From Escherichia phage phi458, in the sequence record OP434518: a DNA stretch of 44,850 nt; one strand, given 5' to 3'. Each line of letters opens with the position of its first letter. Position 1 is the stretch's first letter. Of the stretch, positions 1,749 through 43,889 are shown one piece after another. A program made the translations under genes and the position numbers. Under the pieces are notes generated by a model. It was not told where the DNA came from. It did not search any database and worked only from the letters and a program-made list of their open reading frames with translations.

Positions 1749-1967
1749 TCACAGTCCCCATTGTTTGTTCTTAAGTTCGATCTCCTCCTGGCAACTTGCA
1801 CAAGTCCGACAACCCTGAACGGCCAGGCGTCTTCGTTCATCTATCGGATCGCCACACTCACAACAATGAGTGGCAGATATAGCCTGGTGGTTCAGACGAC
1901 GCATTTTTATTGCTGTATTGCGCTGTAATTCTTCGATTTCTGATGCTGAATCAATGATGTCTGCCAT
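1749..1967 (-). CDS. TraR/DksA-family C4 zinc-finger protein
   Basis: 72 aa with CCECGDPIDERRR...CRTCASC, a four-cysteine spacing typical of phage TraR-like proteins. Confidence 0.6.
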   Translation of the reverse strand: MADIIDSASEIEELQRNTAIKMRRLNHQAISATHCCECGDPIDERRRLAVQGCRTCASCQEEIELKNKQWGL

Positions 1968-2281
1968 CTTCCATTAATCTCTGAATTGTTGGTTAATACG
2001 CTTGAGGGTGAATGCGAATAATAAAAAAGGAGCCTGTAGCTCCCTGATGATTTTGCTTTTCATGTTCATCGCTCCTTAAAGATGCCGTTTAACATGCCGA
2101 TCGCCAGGCTTAAATGAGTCGGTGTGAATCCCTCAGCGTTACCGTTTCGCGGTGCTTCTTCAGTACGCTACGGCAAATGTTATTGATGCTCCTGTCTGGT
2201 GACAGCCTTCGGGCTTGTATTATGTATAAGTTCTGATAAAAGCCTCCGATATATTAAATTTAAATAACGAAATTCATCTTC

Positions 2282-2920
2282 TTGATAAGTTGTGATAGCA
2301 TCATTAAAAGTTTCAGTTCGTTGAGCAGGGATTACATGGTAAATCAGCAACAGCAACAGCAACAGATTAACGAAAATCTAAAAATTGAGGCAATCCGTTG
2401 GTATCAGAAGCTGCAGGAGATTACTTATCTTGAAGCAGGACAACACATGCGGGCTTTAAATCAGCTCATGTGGCAAATCCCTAGTTTCGTAATTGCTGTC
2501 AATGGTGGGTTGTGGTATGCAACAACACTGGCAAATGAAAGTTCCCTATGGATTATCTTTGCAGTGTTAGCATTGTTTGATTTCACAACAATGATTACAC
2601 TTTATCGCTTAAGGTCTTTAATTGGTTCGAAAATAGCACTACAAAAAAACATTGAAGACCCTTCAAAAAACTATATTTTAAATGAAATTACTAGAGACGC
2701 TGGATTTAAATTGCCCTCTAGCTATGATAATAAGGAAACTGGTTACATAGTAGTGTCGTGCTGGGCAATAATGCTTATTGTTTGCTTCTTTGTTAATATT
2801 GCTGGGGTATGTCATCCAAACTTGTTTTCAAAAGACATTTCACATAATACATACAAAGCAACAATTAAAAATATTGAGTCAGGATTATTTATCGAAGCAA
2901 AATCAGGATTATCAAAGTGA
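2282..2920 (+). CDS. Hypothetical integral membrane protein with poly-Gln tract (start may be ATG 2336)
   Basis: Three hydrophobic helices (IPSFVIAVNGGLWYATTL, LWIIFAVLALFDFTTMITL, YIVVSCWAIMLIVCFFVNIAGV); visibly AT-rich; stop overlaps the next gene's start. Confidence 0.6.
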   Translation: MISCDSIIKSFSSLSRDYMVNQQQQQQQINENLKIEAIRWYQKLQEITYLEAGQHMRALNQLMWQIPSFVIAVNGGLWYATTLANESSLWIIFAVLALFDFTTMITLYRLRSLIGSKIALQKNIEDPSKNYILNEITRDAGFKLPSSYDNKETGYIVVSCWAIMLIVCFFVNIAGVCHPNLFSKDISHNTYKATIKNIESGLFIEAKSGLSK

Positions 2921-3519
2921 CTTCGTGGAAGTTTTATGACAATAATGCTGATCGCTTATTTGCCGATTATATATCACTTGATTTTTACTCTATCTTTCAG
3001 GATGTTGAAGAGTTTATTTTACAATCTAAGGGTGTCTCTTTGGATGTCGGTTCAGGTTCCGGCCGTGATGCTGCTGCGTTAGATGAATTAGGTTATAAAG
3101 TAATAGCTGTTGAACCAAGTGAAAAGATGCGAAATTTGGCATCTTCATATTATAAATCTAACCATATTATATGGTTAGATGATTCATTGCCTTTTCTTCA
3201 TAGTGTTAAAGCAATGAATCTAAAGTTCGACCTTATTTTAGTCAGTGCTGTATGGATGCATCTTTCAAAAAAAGAGCAAAAAATCTCACTAGAGACGCTA
3301 ACTGATCTTTTAACATTGAATGGGAGAATGATAATTACATTGCGCTTGGGACCTCCCGAACCAGATAGAAACATTAACGTTGTTAATACTGAGGAACTTC
3401 TTGAGTTAGCGTCTCAGTTAGGTCTGAAAACATTGCGAGTTACGTCAATAAATAAAGATAGTTTTCAACGTAACCAGATAACTTGGCAGAAAGTTGTATT
3501 ATCAAAAAATAATGAGTAA
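2917..3519 (+). CDS. Class I SAM-dependent methyltransferase (GTG start, GTGA overlap with upstream ORF)
   Basis: Motif I LDVGSGSGRDA followed by an acidic residue after a beta-strand (VIAVEPS); 200 aa; AT-rich codon usage like the upstream membrane gene. Confidence 0.65.
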   Translation: MTSWKFYDNNADRLFADYISLDFYSIFQDVEEFILQSKGVSLDVGSGSGRDAAALDELGYKVIAVEPSEKMRNLASSYYKSNHIIWLDDSLPFLHSVKAMNLKFDLILVSAVWMHLSKKEQKISLETLTDLLTLNGRMIITLRLGPPEPDRNINVVNTEELLELASQLGLKTLRVTSINKDSFQRNQITWQKVVLSKNNE

Positions 3520-11287: not shown

Positions 11288-12187
11288 ATGACAAATACAG
11301 CAAAAATACTCAACTTCGGCAGAGGTAACTTTGCCGGACAGGAGCGTAATGTGGCAGATCTCGATGATGGTTACGCCAGACTATCAAATATGCTGCTTGA
11401 GGCTTATTCGGGCGCAGATCTGACCAAGCGACAGTTTAAAGTGCTGCTTGCCATTCTGCGTAAAACCTATGGGTGGAATAAACCAATGGACAGAATCACC
11501 GATTCTCAACTTAGCGAGATTACAAAGTTACCTGTCAAACGGTGCAATGAAGCCAAGTTAGAACTCGTCAGAATGAATATTATCAAGCAGCAAGGCGGCA
11601 TGTTTGGACCAAACAAAAACATCTCAGAATGGTGTATCCCTCAAAACGAGGGAAAATCCCCTAAAACGAGGGATAAAACATCCCTCAAATTGGGGGATTG
11701 CTATCCCTCAAAACAGGGGGACACAAAAGACACTATTACAAAAGAAAAAAGAAAAGATTATTCGTCCGAGAATTCTGGCGAATCCTCTGACCAGCCAGAA
11801 AACGATCTTTCTGTGGTTAAACCGGATGCTGCAATTCAGAGCGGCAGCAAGTGGGGAACAGCAGAAGACCTGACCGCCGCAGAGTGGATGTTTGACATGG
11901 TGAAGACCATCGCGCCATCAGCCAGAAAACCGAATTTTGCTGGGTGGGCTAACGATATCCGCCTGATGCGTGAACGTGACGGACGTAACCACCGCGATAT
12001 GTGTGTGCTTTTCCGCTGGGCCTGCCAGGACAACTTCTGGTCCGGTAACGTGCTGAGTCCGGCCAAACTCCGCGACAAGTGGACCCAGCTCGAAATCAAC
12101 CGTAACAAGCAACAGGCAGGCGTGACAGCCAGCAAACCAAAACTCGACCTGACAAACACTGACTGGATTTACGGGGTGGATTTATGA
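11288..12187 (+). CDS. O: Replication initiator O
   Basis: 299 aa matching lambda O; contains the iteron array. Confidence 0.95.
   Translation: MTNTAKILNFGRGNFAGQERNVADLDDGYARLSNMLLEAYSGADLTKRQFKVLLAILRKTYGWNKPMDRITDSQLSEITKLPVKRCNEAKLELVRMNIIKQQGGMFGPNKNISEWCIPQNEGKSPKTRDKTSLKLGDCYPSKQGDTKDTITKEKRKDYSSENSGESSDQPENDLSVVKPDAAIQSGSKWGTAEDLTAAEWMFDMVKTIAPSARKPNFAGWANDIRLMRERDGRNHRDMCVLFRWACQDNFWSGNVLSPAKLRDKWTQLEINRNKQQAGVTASKPKLDLTNTDWIYGVDL
11636..11765 (+). other. Replication origin (four iterons plus AT-rich region) inside O
   Basis: Four tandem ~18-bp repeats of the TCCCTCAAAACGAGGGA type followed by an A-rich stretch. Confidence 0.85.
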
Positions 12188-37326: not shown

Positions 37327-40194
37327 GTGAATATGGCAGTAAAGATTTCAGGTGTACTGAAAGACGGCACAGGAAAACCGGTACAGAACTGCACAATCCA
37401 GCTGAAAGCAAAACGTAACAGCACCACGGTGGTGGTGAACACGCTGGCCTCAGAAAATCCGGATGAAGCCGGGCGTTACAGCATGGACGTTGAGTACGGT
37501 CAGTACAGCGTTATTCTGTTGGTGGAAGGATTCCCGCCGTCACATGCCGGGACCATCACCGTGTATGAAGATTCCCGACCCGGTACGCTGAATGATTTTC
37601 TCGGTGCCATGACGGAGGATGATGCCCGTCCGGAGGCACTGCGCCGTTTTGAGCTGATGGTGGAAGAGGTGGCGCGTAACGCGTCCGCGGTGGCACAGAA
37701 CACGGCAGCCGCGAAGAAGTCAGCCAGTGATGCCAGCACATCAGCCCGTGAGGCGGCAACCCATGCGACTGATGCTGCAGGCTCAGCACGCGCAGCCAGC
37801 ACGTCAGCCGGACAGGCCGCGTCGTCGGCTCAGTCAGCGACTTCCAGCGCAGGAACGGCATCAACAAAGGCCACTGAAGCATCAAAAAGTGCTGCCGCTG
37901 CAGAGTCCTCAAAAAGCGCGGCAGCTACCAGTGCCAGTGCCGCGAAAACGTCAGAAACGAATGCTGCAGCGTCACAACAATCAGCAGCCACTTCTGCATC
38001 CACCGCGACTACGAAAGCGTCAGAAGCTGCCACCTCAGCCCGGGATGCGGCGGCTTCAAAAGAGGCGGCAAAATCATCAGAAACGAACGCCTCCACAAGC
38101 GCCAGCAGCGCAGCTTCCTCGGCAACGGCGACAGCAAATTCTGCGAAGGCGGCAAAAACGTCCGAGACGAACGCCAAGGCTTCTGAAACGGCAGCGGGAC
38201 AGAGTGCCTCAGCTGCGGCAGGCTCAAAAACAGCGGCTGCGTCGTCTGCCAGTGCCGCGTCAACAAGTGCCGGGCAGGCCTCAGCCAGTGCCACCGCCGC
38301 CGGAAAATCGGCAGAAAGTGCTGCGTCGTCCGCTTCAACAGCCACAACGAAGGCTGGCGAAGCCGCTGTACAGGCCAGCGCAGCAGCGAGGTCTGCTTCC
38401 GCAGCGAAGACATCCGAAACGAATGCGAAAGCGTCGGAAACCCGTGCAGAATCCTCAAAAACGGCAGCCGCATCGTCCGCCAGTTCGGCAGCGTCATCGG
38501 CATCATCTGCGTCTGCTTCAAAAGATGAGGCGACCAGACAGGCGTCAGCAGCGAAGGGCAGCGCCACGACGGCATCCACGAAAGCAACAGAGGCGGCAGG
38601 CAGTGCGACGGCAGCATCTCAGAGCAAAACTGCTGCTGAATCCGCTGCGACCCGTGCGGAAGCTGCTGCTGATCGTGCTGAAGAGATTGCCGGTGCAGTT
38701 GCGATGGAAGACGCAAGCCTTACAACTAAAGGTGTTGTGAAACTTAGCAGTGCTGTTGATAGCACCAGTGAATCGCTGGCCGCAACGCCAAAAGCAGTTA
38801 AAGCAGCCAATGACAATGCGAATAGCAGGGTGCCATCTAACCGAAAAGTTAACGGAAAAGCACTGACTGCGGATATAACATTAACGCCGAAAGATATTGG
38901 TACTTTAAATTCAGTAACGATGTCTTTCTCTGGCGGGGCTGGGTGGTTCAAACTGGCTACGGTTACCATGCCACAAGCGAGTTCCATCGTTTACATCGCA
39001 TTGATTGGTGGCGCTGGTTACAACGTCGGTTCCCCACATCAGGCAGGCATTTCAGAACTGGTTCTACGAGCAGGCAATGGAAACCCCAAAGGAATTACCG
39101 GGGCTTTGTGGAAGCGTACAGCCGTCGGATTAACGAATTTCGCCTGGATCAACACATCCGGCGATACATATGATATTTACGTTGAGATTGGCAATTATGC
39201 GACTCGTGTAAATATCCATTGGGATTGTACTGCAAATGCGACAGTTTCTATTTATACATCGCCAACATATTCAGCGAGTAAGCCTTCCAGCGTTACCGAT
39301 GGTGTTGTTTATACGATGTATAGCACACATCAGAAACCGACGCCGTTAGATATTGGAGCACTGCCAACAACCGGAGGAACAGTTTCAGGTCCGTTGTCTG
39401 TTACAGGTGGATTAACTGGTTCATTGAATGGTAATGCAAGTACAGCCACGAAATTGCAGACGGCAAGATCTATCGGTGGAGTTGTTTTCGACGGTTCTGC
39501 AAATATTAACCTTCCAGGTGTAAACACTACGGGTAATCAGAACACCACTGGTAATGCTGCAACTGCCACAAAACTACAGACTGCACGGAATATCAACGGC
39601 GTTCCGTTTGACGGCACGAAGGATATTACGCTTACGCCTAAAGATCTGGATGCCTACAGCAAAAGCGAAGTACAGAGCGCACTGGCGGGCAAACAACCGC
39701 TGGACAATACGCTGACTAATTTGAGTGGAAAGGATGTAGCTGGTCTTCTCGCATACCTTCAATTGGGAGAAGCGGCAAAACGTAATGTCGGAACCGGTAA
39801 TAATCAACTCCCGGACATGTCCGCATTTGGTATGTCGCGAAACGGACAAACTGCCTGGGATATTCTCCCAAATGGTATGATTCGACAGGTTGGTACTGTG
39901 ACACTGACGCCTGTTGGTAATTTCAACGCAATTACTCTTGGTGGAGTGCTGTACTACACCCATTACTACAGGGTTAATTTCCCCAGACAATTCCCAAATG
40001 CACAAATAGCAACGCTGGCAACACTAGCGAGTTACAGCTTTTCGACCCAGTCATCAATGGCTGGGAAATCACTGGCAACGCATCGCGATACTGATTCTGG
40101 CACTGACGTATCAAGAACGCGATTCACTGTGTCGTATACGACACCCAATCTCGGCGAAATTCCGACTTTGCATTTTGAAGCAATAGGATACTAA
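37327..40194 (+). CDS. stf: Side tail fibre protein with long Ala/Ser/Thr-rich repeat region
   Basis: N-terminus MAVKISGVLKDGTGKPVQNCTIQLKA... matches lambda Stf; about 340 residues of ASxSAxxA-type repeats; divergent C-terminal receptor-binding part. Confidence 0.85.
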   Translation: MNMAVKISGVLKDGTGKPVQNCTIQLKAKRNSTTVVVNTLASENPDEAGRYSMDVEYGQYSVILLVEGFPPSHAGTITVYEDSRPGTLNDFLGAMTEDDARPEALRRFELMVEEVARNASAVAQNTAAAKKSASDASTSAREAATHATDAAGSARAASTSAGQAASSAQSATSSAGTASTKATEASKSAAAAESSKSAAATSASAAKTSETNAAASQQSAATSASTATTKASEAATSARDAAASKEAAKSSETNASTSASSAASSATATANSAKAAKTSETNAKASETAAGQSASAAAGSKTAAASSASAASTSAGQASASATAAGKSAESAASSASTATTKAGEAAVQASAAARSASAAKTSETNAKASETRAESSKTAAASSASSAASSASSASASKDEATRQASAAKGSATTASTKATEAAGSATAASQSKTAAESAATRAEAAADRAEEIAGAVAMEDASLTTKGVVKLSSAVDSTSESLAATPKAVKAANDNANSRVPSNRKVNGKALTADITLTPKDIGTLNSVTMSFSGGAGWFKLATVTMPQASSIVYIALIGGAGYNVGSPHQAGISELVLRAGNGNPKGITGALWKRTAVGLTNFAWINTSGDTYDIYVEIGNYATRVNIHWDCTANATVSIYTSPTYSASKPSSVTDGVVYTMYSTHQKPTPLDIGALPTTGGTVSGPLSVTGGLTGSLNGNASTATKLQTARSIGGVVFDGSANINLPGVNTTGNQNTTGNAATATKLQTARNINGVPFDGTKDITLTPKDLDAYSKSEVQSALAGKQPLDNTLTNLSGKDVAGLLAYLQLGEAAKRNVGTGNNQLPDMSAFGMSRNGQTAWDILPNGMIRQVGTVTLTPVGNFNAITLGGVLYYTHYYRVNFPRQFPNAQIATLATLASYSFSTQSSMAGKSLATHRDTDSGTDVSRTRFTVSYTTPNLGEIPTLHFEAIGY

Positions 40195-40196
40195 AT

Positions 40197-40430
40197 ATGG
40201 AGAATATGTATTTCAGCCCAACGACCGTTGGTTTTTATGTTTCTGAACAAGAGCGACCTGATGATGCGGTTGAAGTCTCGCCAGAGGTGGAGGCATTTTT
40301 GAGGGAGTGTGTTATCTGGGGAGCGGATACATTTAACGTAGAGCGAGATGCAGCAACGGTGACATATCCAACAGAACTGCTTGAATATGTCACCACCTAC
40401 AACGCCCCCGTTAAATATCCTGCGGATTGA
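40197..40430 (+). CDS. Hypothetical 77-aa protein after stf (possible remnant of a tail-fibre chaperone)
   Basis: ORF starts 3 nt after the stf stop; its 3' end overlaps the convergent tfa. Confidence 0.35.
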   Translation: MENMYFSPTTVGFYVSEQERPDDAVEVSPEVEAFLRECVIWGADTFNVERDAATVTYPTELLEYVTTYNAPVKYPAD

Positions 40431-40821: not shown

Positions 40822-40872
40822 TCTTAATACCCCAGCGCGATAAAACAACAATCTTCGGTGCCCTCTCCGGAT

Positions 40873-40881
40873 GGCGACCAG
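40873..40881. repeat. 9-bp target-site duplication GGCGACCAG, left copy
   Basis: Identical 9-mer immediately flanks both outer IS1 ends (second copy 41731-41739). Confidence 0.75.
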
Positions 40882-40962
40882 GGTGATGCTGCCAACTTAC
40901 TGATTTAGTGTATGATGGTGTTTTTGAGGTGCTCCAGTGGCTTCTGTTTCTATCAGCTGTCC
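40882..40962 (+). mobile_element. 81-bp IS1 left-end fragment (canonical IRL), tandem to the full IS1
   Basis: GGTGATGCTGCCAACTTACTGATTTAGTGTATGATGGTG... ends at CAGCTGTCC and is immediately followed by a second IS1 left end. Confidence 0.8.
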
Positions 40963-41017
40963 GGTAATGCTGCCAACTTACTGATTTAGTGTATGATGGT
41001 GATTTTAAGGTGCTTGC

Positions 41018-41293
41018 GTGGCTTCCATTTCCATCAGATGTCCTTCCTGCTCCGCTACTGAAGGCGTGGTGCGTAACGGCAAAAGCACTGCCGGACATCA
41101 GCGCTATCTCTGCTCTCATTGCCGTAAAACATGGCAACTACAGTTCACTTACACCGCCTCTCAACCCGGTACGCACCAGAAAATCATTGATATGGCCATG
41201 AATGGCGTTGGATGTCGCGCCAGTGCACGCATTATGGGCGTTGGCCTCAACACGGTTTTACGTCACTTAAAAAACTCAGGCCGCAGTCGGTAA
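41018..41293 (+). CDS. insA: IS1 InsA
   Basis: 91 aa [43 protein letters not shown]... zinc-finger/HTH. Confidence 0.9.
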
Positions 41294-41715
41294 CCTCGCG
41301 CATACAACCGGGCAGTGATGTGATTGTCTGCGCGGAAATGGACGAACAGTGGGGCTACGTCGGTGCTAAATCACGTCAGCGCTGGCTGTTTTACGCGTAT
41401 GACAGGATACGGAGGACAGTTGTGGCGCACGTTTTCGGTGAACGCACTCTGGCCACACTGGCGCGTCTTCTGAGCCTGCTGTCGGCCTTTGAGGTCGTGG
41501 TATGGATGACGGATGGCTGGCCGCTGTATGAATCCCGCCTGAAGGGAAAGCTGCACGTTATCAGCAAGCGTTACACTCAGCGCATTGAGCGACATAATCT
41601 GAATCTGAGACAACATCTGGCAAGGCTGGGACGGAAGTTACTGTCGTTCTCAAAATCGGTGGAGCTGCATGACAAAGTCATCGGGCATTATCTGAACATA
41701 AAACACTATCAGTAA
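41212..41715 (+). CDS. insB: IS1 InsB frame (transposase made as InsAB' by -1 frameshift)
   Basis: 167-aa frame overlapping the insA 3' end; TTAAAAAAC slippery motif present. Confidence 0.85.
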
Positions 41716-42146
41716 GTTGGAGTCATTACCGGCGACCAGTTCTGAATACTGATATGCGTTCTGCTGGCAATACGCACATTCATCGCGGCATTGTAGCCAG
41801 ATGTTCCACGGTTTCCGGTCGCAAATAAGCCTGCATAGGGAAAAGCAAATGGTAAGGCATATCCAGCATCAGCTCCCTTTTGTGTTGCCACCGTTCCCCA
41901 CTGCAACATAAGTTTCACCGGGTTTCCTGTCGTCGCAATGCATGGAATGTAGATGTAGCCATTCCCTGACATCATTGACCTGAAGCTGTCTAAATCCAGT
42001 AACTTCGAGGCATTATCTGCTCCAACATCTCGTGTTGCGGCGGTCCCTAACTGGAGCGCATTTCGGAAGGCTGATACATCAGAAATATCAGCTCCATTAG
42101 CCGATTTCTGCATAGCTCCGGAGGCTTTATTTATCGTTTCTCCCAA
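41709..42146 (-). pseudogene. Inverted alternative tail-fibre C-terminal segment (stf'), 3' end disrupted by IS1
   Basis: Minus-strand Gly/Thr/Ala-rich fibre-tip-like ORF that runs 21 nt into the IS1 right end before stopping; sits between the inverted tfa and the invertase remnant. Confidence 0.5.
41731..41739. repeat. 9-bp target-site duplication GGCGACCAG, right copy
   Basis: Same 9-mer as 40873-40881, directly after the IS1 right end. Confidence 0.75.
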
Positions 42147-42222: not shown

Positions 42223-42424
42223 ATGATTTACGGGTATGTTCGTGTATCAACAAATCATCAGGATACAGAGTTGCAACGTCTTGCACTTGAGTCAGCTGGC
42301 TGTGAGCGAATTTATGAAGAATATGCCAGTGGCAGAACAGCTAATCGCCCTGTGTTAAAGGAATTAATTACGGTGATGAAAAGTGGAGATGAGTTGATTG
42401 TCTGGAAACTGGACCGGCTGGGAT
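42223..42424 (+). pseudogene. pin: Truncated serine-recombinase DNA invertase (Pin/Gin/Hin family), N-terminal ~67 codons
   Basis: MIYGYVRVSTNHQDTELQRLALESAGCERIYEEYASGRTANRPVLKELITVMKSGDELIVWKLDRLG includes the catalytic-serine motif, then diverges and stops after 92 codons. Confidence 0.75.
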
Positions 42425-42734
42425 TATATAAAACCGCAGACACGTCGTATGCAAGAACTTGCTGCGGCTGGATGGTGGACTTTAGTGCGAGTATTGAATG
42501 ATTTCCATCTATTATAGATTTTACCGTATTTCGGCATGAATGAAACTGAATATCCTCCCACCGACCCTCCATGACTTTACACCACTGTCTCTGGGGCTGC
42601 TATGTGCCAGTAGAGGACGTTGCTAGTGTCAGCCTATGTTAATCAACAGGGAGCAGGTCACACTGTCGTCTCAGAATACCTAGCGCATAGGTCACACGAA
42701 CTTCCAACTGTATTGCTTGTTTTCGTGGCTAAGC

Positions 42735-43889
42735 CTATTTTTGTTGATGATACCAATGCAACATCATCCGGAGCTTCAATAGAGTTGTACTGTCATCATC
42801 CTCAGAACAAAAATTGTATCGCCCGCCTGAATATTCATTTAACTTGTCCAAGTAAAAGCCACCCATTGGGTCATATCTATCAGAGTGGAGCCAAGTAAAC
42901 ATTTTCTGAAGAACGTAATGCAGGGCATTTTTCGGAAGTGTTGAAATCAACACGCCATGCTTAGTTGCTAAATCCTCAATATTCATTTCCTGAAGATTAT
43001 ATCTAATCTCTACTGCAATTGGATGTAGTTTACTTAAAAATACGTCAGCTTCATCCTTGAGATGTGCCTCTTTAACATTCCCCTCGAACAACTTTATTAA
43101 CTCTTCCACTTCCATTCGGTAATAATCGTTATCACCTCGCACCGCAACTTCTGAAAGAAGCAACTTTAACTCAGCATGAATGTTATCAGTAGACGGTATA
43201 ATCTGTTTGGATAGGGTGCTGTAATGTTTTATACGGATTGCTATTACGGAACCCTTTAGGCTTGTTAGATATTTATACCTATCTTCAATATATGTAATTA
43301 GCTCATCGAATTTAATGCCGAAAATAACATCATCTTTCCCTGGCGTGTTGTTGTAAAGGCTTATAGTGAAATCATTTTCATTGAAAGCATGAAAATGAGG
43401 CCAGCTTGCAAACAGTCGCTCACCATCACTATTTTTAAGATTTGTAGGGTGAGCACCAAAGATAGCTCGAATACTCTTAAAGTATGCGTCATCATCCTCA
43501 TGTGAAAGATAGGGCGTTTTATTCTTAAAGACATTCGTTGATTTCTTGAAAGGCCACCTCGCTAACTTATCATCACTCTCAATGATGCGGTGAAGCTGCT
43601 GCAACGCCTCCACAGCAATATCAATAGATGATATAAGGGAGTAAACCTGCATGGCCTTGACATCAATATCTTCCGACAGCTCAGGGAAGTTCATCAGATT
43701 GCGAACAGAAACGCTTATCCAATCCATGCACGAACAGATAGGGCTGAACTGGTTTTTACCATTTCTGTTTATGAAGTAGCTGTAAGCAAACTCCCCTTCA
43801 TTAACCACATCTCGAAAATCAGTTATTAAAGTATCATCAATAGTTACACCAAAATCTGCCTTGGTCATCTTCATGGAAATCACTTTCAA
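42735..43889 (-). CDS. Unrecognised 384-aa cargo protein near attR
   Basis: Long clean ORF in a visibly AT-rich block between the invertase remnant and attR; no motif recognised. Confidence 0.7.
   Translation of the reverse strand: MKVISMKMTKADFGVTIDDTLITDFRDVVNEGEFAYSYFINRNGKNQFSPICSCMDWISVSVRNLMNFPELSEDIDVKAMQVYSLISSIDIAVEALQQLHRIIESDDKLARWPFKKSTNVFKNKTPYLSHEDDDAYFKSIRAIFGAHPTNLKNSDGERLFASWPHFHAFNENDFTISLYNNTPGKDDVIFGIKFDELITYIEDRYKYLTSLKGSVIAIRIKHYSTLSKQIIPSTDNIHAELKLLLSEVAVRGDNDYYRMEVEELIKLFEGNVKEAHLKDEADVFLSKLHPIAVEIRYNLQEMNIEDLATKHGVLISTLPKNALHYVLQKMFTWLHSDRYDPMGGFYLDKLNEYSGGRYNFCSEDDDSTTLLKLRMMLHWYHQQK

Follow-up and report, generated by a model that had tools for sequence, protein, structure and literature searches.

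The stretch of DNA analysed here (44,850 nt of Escherichia phage phi458, sequence record OP434518; hereafter the window) is a lambdoid prophage in which an IS1-type element interrupts the gene for a Gp53-like_C tail-fibre tip cassette. The features of the element and of the gene that it interrupts are collected in Table 1. The intact target gene encodes 143 aa and was found at a locus with an empty site (L015). In the window, the target gene has the opposite orientation to the stf N-terminal gene, a 955-aa tail-fibre gene at 37327-40194, and adjoins a Caudo_TAP assembly gene and a truncated resolvase/invertase gene. The latter (42223-42501, + strand) has been cut to 92 aa and comprises the N-terminal Resolvase domain only, at residues 2-67, and a 77-aa ORF (40197-40430, + strand) follows the 955-aa tail-fibre gene. 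Because of the truncated invertase and the 77-aa ORF, the tail-fibre invertible segment looks frozen, with the IS lying in a cassette that is not expressed. The insertion removes approximately the last 19 codons of this apparently silent cassette and is probably neutral. Immediately past the truncated invertase lies a 384-aa ORF (42735-43889, - strand), for which Pfam and PADLOC scans returned no match; at the empty site in L015, the invertase remnant is followed by a DinI-like gene and prfC, and the 384-aa ORF may be variable cargo at the prophage end.

Table 1. Features of the 849-bp composite element and of the interrupted gene in the window
Feature	Position	Strand	Basis
Interrupted gene, 3' remnant (about the last 19 codons)	40824..40881	-	mapped from the intact gene in L015
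Target-site duplication, left copy, GGCGACCAG	40873..40881	.	repeat search; single copy in the empty site
Outer left-end unit, 81 nt, IS1A-type (IS1A positions 1-81)	40882..40962	+	81/81 versus K-12 IS1A
Outer IRL, GGTGATGCTGCCAACTTACTGAT	40882..40904	+	inverted-repeat pairing and pattern count
Outer promoter-like site CTGCCA-16-TATGAT (PIS1 position)	40889..40916	+	predicted
15-codon ORF, MASVSISCPVMLPTY then stop; truncated IS1A insA start, stopping within the inner IRL	40937..40984	+	translation only
Complete IS1F-type element, 768 bp	40963..41730	+	756/768 versus K-12 IS1F
Inner IRL, GGTAATGCTGCCAACTTACTGAT, now internal	40963..40985	+	pairing; plain copies L024 and L026 start here with their own duplications
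Inner promoter-like site CTGCCA-16-TATGAT (inner PIS1)	40970..40997	+	predicted
insA, 91 codons, intact	41018..41293	+	translation
insAB' transposase, 232 aa after -1 frameshift, intact	41018..41715	+	translation, without stop
Synonymous SNP private to the window copy: G, against A in all other copies examined (GTG/GTA, Val, insA)	41068	+	copy comparison
A6C (AAAAAAC) programmed -1 frameshift motif, IS position 307	41269..41275	+	sequence; RefSeq 'programmed frameshift' on the same gene
IRR	41708..41730	+	pairs with both left ends
Target-site duplication, right copy, GGCGACCAG	41731..41739	.	repeat search
Interrupted target gene, 5' part, Gp53-like_C tail-fibre tip cassette	41731..42113	-	Pfam PF21882

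The element is 849 bp long and begins with an 81-nt direct repeat (40882-40962 and 40963-41043), the two units of which lie head-to-tail without a spacer and are 88% identical, differing at 10 positions. The right end of the element pairs as an inverted repeat with the inner IRL (88%) and also with the outer IRL (83%), and the window contains two matches to the 23-nt IRL pattern, where shuffled controls gave an expectation of zero. The initial annotation had described a canonical 81-bp IS1 left end followed by a complete 768-bp IS1 of a divergent isoform, two left inverted repeats in direct orientation and a 9-bp repeat bracketing the outer limits of the whole composite, and our analysis confirmed all of these at the positions given in Table 1. 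The PIS1 promoter, InsA and the 8- or 9-bp target duplications of IS1 have been described previously (PMC12428005). The window element has the terminal inverted repeats of ∼23 bp (GGTRATG...) that characterize the IS1 family, target duplications of family length (9 bp in the window and at seven other sites; 8 bp in a further copy, L008) and insA and insB' joined at the A6C motif into an InsAB' of ∼232 aa. The family length of 768 bp with two ends is a property of the 768-bp core alone, as the 849-bp unit has three IS1 ends. Among the properties tested, only the length of the unit and its number of ends set the 849-bp composite apart from other IS1 elements.

To assign the isoforms, the annotated IS1A and IS1F elements of K-12 MG1655 (the IS1F copy at 4518472-4519239) were used as references. 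The outer unit was identical to IS1A positions 1-81, whereas the inner 768 bp were far closer to IS1F (98.4% identity) than to IS1A (703/768). The first 81 nt of the inner element matched IS1F at 81/81 positions, and the 10 differences between the two units are exactly the states that distinguish IS1A from IS1F. At the sites that discriminate the two isoforms, the inner element is mostly F-type, with nine scattered A-like states, three private states and no A-type block; it remains F-type through position 750, and no A/F crossover is visible. Thus, the inner 768 bp show the high whole-length identity without mosaicism that is expected of the IS1F isoform, and the two isoforms proposed from the sequence can be named as IS1A (outer) and IS1F (inner).

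Both reading frames of the inner element are intact, and the sole difference between the insAB' of the window and the element annotated with WP_099550739.1 (RefSeq, at other sites) is the synonymous change at 41068. The two predicted promoter-like sites occupy IS positions 8-35 in each 81-nt unit, consistent with the partial overlap of PIS1 and IRL in IS1 (PMC12428005), and no terminator-like site was predicted between them. An IHF-like motif is present in the sequence of both 81-nt units, and the outer unit holds the first 8.7 insA codons.

We then determined how widely the composite is distributed. A search with the region and its flanks revealed that many complete E. coli genomes match the whole 849-bp composite in one piece, at 99.4-99.9% identity in all but one among the matches listed and with varying neighbour genes, and returned no record matching the composite together with the flanks of the window. 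A 100-nt junction probe was discarded because its halves joined onto ordinary IS1 left ends (two pieces, ∼97% identity), and it was replaced with a 44-nt probe, 22 nt on either side of the junction, which cannot seed on a single end. The initial annotation had suggested looking for the same junction in related genomes, and this probe located it at 143 places (129 chromosomal and 14 plasmid) in 87 of 5,426 complete E. coli genomes, with one to five places in each, and on 16 plasmids in PLSDB, among them a Salmonella IncC plasmid and an E. fergusonii plasmid. As F-type IS1 left ends were found at 11,332 places in 4,189 genomes, the composite accounts for ∼1.3% of them. A junction scan of the GTDB species-representative genomes gave no match, and the composite was not found in phage records. 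Scans of metagenomes and of IMG/VR each gave one contig, with the inner copy diverging after position 56 in the former (L016) and the contig ending 41 nt into the inner copy in the latter. The metagenome contig is one of three decayed composites that were observed. In the second, on the Salmonella IncC plasmid CP082646.1 (L007), the match stops at approximately inner position 252, with an IS66-family element just downstream; in the third, from strain ET210 (L023), the sequence is out of register from approximately position 312, and the annotation gives a pseudogene that has an internal stop. RefSeq gives copies of the composite no label beyond 'IS1 family transposase', and no annotated feature covers the junction or the additional 81 nt. 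We found no 849-bp IS1, duplicated left inverted repeat, tandem left end or nested IS1 in the searchable literature.

Copies at independent sites were retrieved, and the element boundaries and flanking duplications were extracted. Seven copies of 849 bp were each bracketed by a perfect 9-bp duplication of their own: in melB (L002, GATGACCTG), between cbl and nac (L003, CGCAACCTC), in pgaA (L004, GGTTGAGAG), in mcbR (L005, GCGATTTAT), in an LprI-family gene (L006, CGACCATGA), between ycgX and ymgK (L018, TTAACGCAC) and between cbpA and yccE (L021, GTAATATAC). Of two further composites, one (L008) has an 8-bp duplication and the other (L019) has flanks that agree at 8 of 9 positions. The seven copies, whose source strains come from several continents, differ from the window copy by one or two bases and among themselves by at most one (a single base, in L005). 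Further, other E. coli genomes contain the reconstructed empty target site, with one GGCGACCAG, at 100% identity along 1,010 nt. Including the window, the long unit has therefore moved by its outer end at eight independent sites, and these results show that the 849-bp unit moves as a whole, that its ends are the outer IS1A-type IRL and the IRR, and that it generates the usual 9-bp duplication. Because the same unit lies at seven other sites with their own duplications, and because the site in the window is found empty elsewhere, the composite reached the window ready-made, in one transposition. The proposal in the initial annotation that the outer duplication implies a secondary event at this locus is consequently not sustained. 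We consider it highly probable that the window contains a copy of an autonomous IS1 variant of 849 bp that was already formed before it arrived and that consists of an IS1A-type left end and a coding-intact IS1F-type element.

The composite coexists with plain 768-bp relatives. A probe spanning three sublineage-specific sites matched 287 records at ≥99% identity, compared with 95 records with the junction, and P276M and ETEC H10407 carry composite and plain 768-bp copies alike. The plain copies open with the inner-type end GGTAATG, match the interior of the usual composite at 768/768 positions and have 9-bp duplications of their own (GACCCAGGG in L024 and CAAGGCACG in L026, from H10407). We infer that the element behaves as a three-ended transposon, in which use of the inner IRL with the IRR would yield a 768-bp unit and use of the outer IRL with the IRR yields the 849-bp unit. 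The plain copies may equally be progenitors rather than products of the composite, as identical sequences give no direction of descent. Across the sublineage, GACC occurs in 4 of 10 9-bp duplications (GGCGACCAG, GATGACCTG, CGACCATGA and GACCCAGGG, in the window, L002, L006 and L024, respectively), which are too few to indicate a preference.

The number of 81-nt units is itself variable. At one site, shared by several genomes and plasmids, where the left flank adjoins a gene for a 166-aa hypothetical protein, two-unit copies (L001, L008 and L022) were found together with a three-unit form of 930 bp on plasmid NZ_CP062909.1 (L009, 2442-3371), the middle unit of which has the F-type state at position 4 and A-type states from position 40 onwards, and a one-unit form in strain YJ6 (L025, 1054-1821), which has a hybrid IRL with G at position 4 and is F-type from position 40. 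The three-unit and one-unit forms look like reciprocal gain and loss products of unequal crossing-over between 81-nt units. A-type gene-conversion patches are also present inside the inner copies of L008 and L009.

The 166-aa protein (WP_000148192.1) has an apparent N-terminal hydrophobic stretch and gave no match in a Pfam scan. Its gene adjoins the composite on plasmids (L008 and L009) and, in the ETEC H10407 chromosome, lies on a 702-bp segment that forms part of a 2,319-bp compound element between ybhI and ybhJ (L001, 972-3290; also in L022 and L025). This compound element consists of an inverted IS1, the 702-bp segment and the composite, and is bracketed by a perfect 9-bp duplication, ACCCTCGGC. 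In strain RM14721, a composite without a duplication (L020) has the right flank of the H10407 compound element, upstream of ybhJ, and a different left flank, on the ybhD side; comparison with L001 and L026 suggests that neighbouring IS1 copies recombined, or that IS1 mediated a deletion, in the ybhD-ybhJ region.

As to how the composite was founded, the favoured scheme begins with the insertion of an F-type IS1 into an IS1A, between positions 81 and 82 and in the same orientation. Transposase, supplied either by the element itself or in trans by IS1A, would then have paired the IRL of the resident IS1A with the IRR of the incoming element and mobilised the 81+768 bp lying between them, an alternative-end route that would require neither deletion nor recombination. 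The right junction predicted for such a nest (an IS1 right end, CAGCTGTCC and IS1A from position 82) is present in three records. In one of these (L014, 1679-3223), the order is IS1A 1-81, a complete IS1 and IS1A 73-768, with CAGCTGTCC as the 9-bp duplication; therefore, position 81/82 of an IS1 does receive a second IS1 in the same orientation, with a 9-bp duplication. No pure F-in-A nest came from the right-junction search, in which each nested example was either A-in-A or a patchy mosaic of A and F; the founding event is thus a reconstruction rather than an observation.

Nests at 81/82 with CAGCTGTCC, or their derivatives, were observed at at least three genomic sites with differing A/F mosaics (L014, L012, L013 at 1760-3223, and L017), which would be explained by a hot spot for self-insertion just within the left end or by the spread of one founding nest. 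Among them, L012 (1760-3223) consists of a full IS1 followed by IS1A 73-768 with the duplication TGATCATAA. It could be read as evidence of a mobile mirror-image pairing of ends, but L017 (4761-4882) has the same flank as L012 and then retains the 81-nt unit, and loss of this unit at the shared site fits better.

The same mobile unit could have been founded in another way, by recombination across the 696-bp direct repeats of the nest or by an adjacent deletion from a downstream F-type IRL into IS1A at 81/82. Recombination between IS1 segments is frequent, IS1 promotes adjacent deletions, and the duplication is absent from the copies at the site by the 166-aa gene (the 'hyp' site) in L001, L009 and L022. 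However, recombination with an A-type resident would leave an A-type right part in the inner copy unless the crossover fell within the last 18 bp, and the endpoint of an adjacent deletion would have to coincide by chance with the 81/82 position used by nested insertions. We therefore regard these routes as possible but doubtful, and because the inner copy is F-type through position 750, where recombination predicts an A-type right part, alternative-end use is favoured. Of the origin suggested in the initial annotation (an IS-into-IS insertion with deletion, or recombination between isoforms), the insertion of one IS1 isoform into another is upheld by the junction at inner base 1 and by the nest in L014. 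Deletion is not required to form the composite, and the F-to-A mosaic that recombination between isoforms predicts was not seen.

Three explanations that do without a mobile 849-bp unit founded by nesting fare much worse. In the first, an IS1A inserted into the tail-fibre cassette with GGCGACCAG, an F-type IS1 then entered it, and the remainder of the IS1A was deleted or recombined out locally. Such an event would place the duplication at the outer limits, as observed, and would draw on processes documented here, namely the nesting of IS1 in IS1 at 81/82 (L014) and the recombination between isoforms that is common among these structures. Nonetheless, it is very improbable: nearly the same 849 bp occurs at seven other duplicated sites and its junction at 143 places overall, for which repetition of a multi-step accident is not credible; the inner copy lacks the A-type right portion expected from recombination with a resident IS1A; and no genome was found with an IS1A at the window site, where only empty sites were seen. 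Equally hard to credit is replication slippage that doubled the first 81 bp of one IS1 in tandem, after which one of the two copies diverged or underwent gene conversion. The units do lie head-to-tail without a spacer, and 81-nt repeats do grow and shrink by recombination (L009 and L025), but their 10 differences are exactly those between IS1A (outer, 81/81) and IS1F (inner, 81/81), and the boundary of the repeat falls both at the end of an IS and at the 81/82 position where nested insertions with CAGCTGTCC are seen, which indicates transposition, not slippage. Finally, IS1 is present in many copies, and repeats are indeed sometimes mis-joined in short-read assembly. The assembly artefact that the initial annotation had asked to exclude, here a false tandem left end formed when IS1A and IS1F reads were mis-joined or collapsed, is nevertheless effectively excluded, as an artefact would be confined to one assembly without the hallmarks of transposition, whereas the identical junction, joining position 81 to position 1 always at the same base and within clean, proper target duplications, is found in 87 independent complete genome assemblies from many laboratories and on 16 plasmids.

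The composite can thus be set beside the elements that it most resembles. It shares with K-12 IS1F, over its inner 768 bp, the same ends, the insA/insB' layout and the A6C motif at 307. However, the transposase frame of K-12 IS1F stops at residue 162, and its InsA has two substitutions; the 232-aa frame of the window copy is intact. K-12 IS1F is reportedly almost immobile (PMC12428005), and the window sublineage, in contrast to K-12 IS1F, has near-identical copies at many sites, fresh duplications and a mobile unit of 849 bp rather than 768 bp. With IS1A, the composite has in common the outer IRL, PIS1-like site, IHF-like motif and insA start; only these first 81 nt of IS1A have been kept, and they encode nothing beyond the 15-codon ORF. 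Tn1721/Tn1722, of the Tn3 family, has a directly repeated terminal end, so that two nested units share one end, and has a large duplicated segment and cargo genes. The composite shares with it a duplicated end and long and short forms (849 and 768 bp) that are both flanked by duplications, which is an analogy and not membership; in contrast to Tn1721/Tn1722, it is a minimal IS without cargo, and its 81-nt spare end comes from another isoform. With regard to Tn9-like IS1 compound transposons, the composite of H10407 forms one arm of such an element (ACCCTCGGC), whereas the window copy is solitary.

The default reading is that the spare left end is a tolerated passenger. Judging from its sequence, it would nevertheless supply a second PIS1-like promoter, a binding site for InsA and transposase, an IHF-like site and a 15-codon upstream ORF. 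Alternatively, the spare end could be active, such that the outer IRL, serving synapsis and cleavage, would be split from the inner IRL, which would retain the promoter and InsA operator. IS1 self-repression would then be changed, and the F-type element would be more active or differently regulated. In the same scenario, position 81/82, which adjoins the IHF-bound left end on its inner side, would be favoured by IS1 as a self-target, and three-ended forms would arise repeatedly. We consider this alternative unlikely.

The 849-bp element shows that 81 nt of an IS1A end suffice to serve as a functional terminus when the rest of the element belongs to a different isoform, and how, once an IS has landed in another, a single additional step can generate a longer mobile unit. 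The composite is also a natural construct, with tandem promoters and operators and a choice between inner and outer ends, suited to studying the coupling of InsA repression with end recognition. For genome annotation, an error of 81 bp would enter IS boundaries, target duplications and interrupted-gene calls in ∼1.6% of complete E. coli genomes because current annotation leaves the 81 nt unlabelled. Overall, the results indicate that a two-left-end form of IS1, which is among the most studied and most mutagenic of enterobacterial insertion sequences, circulates naturally.
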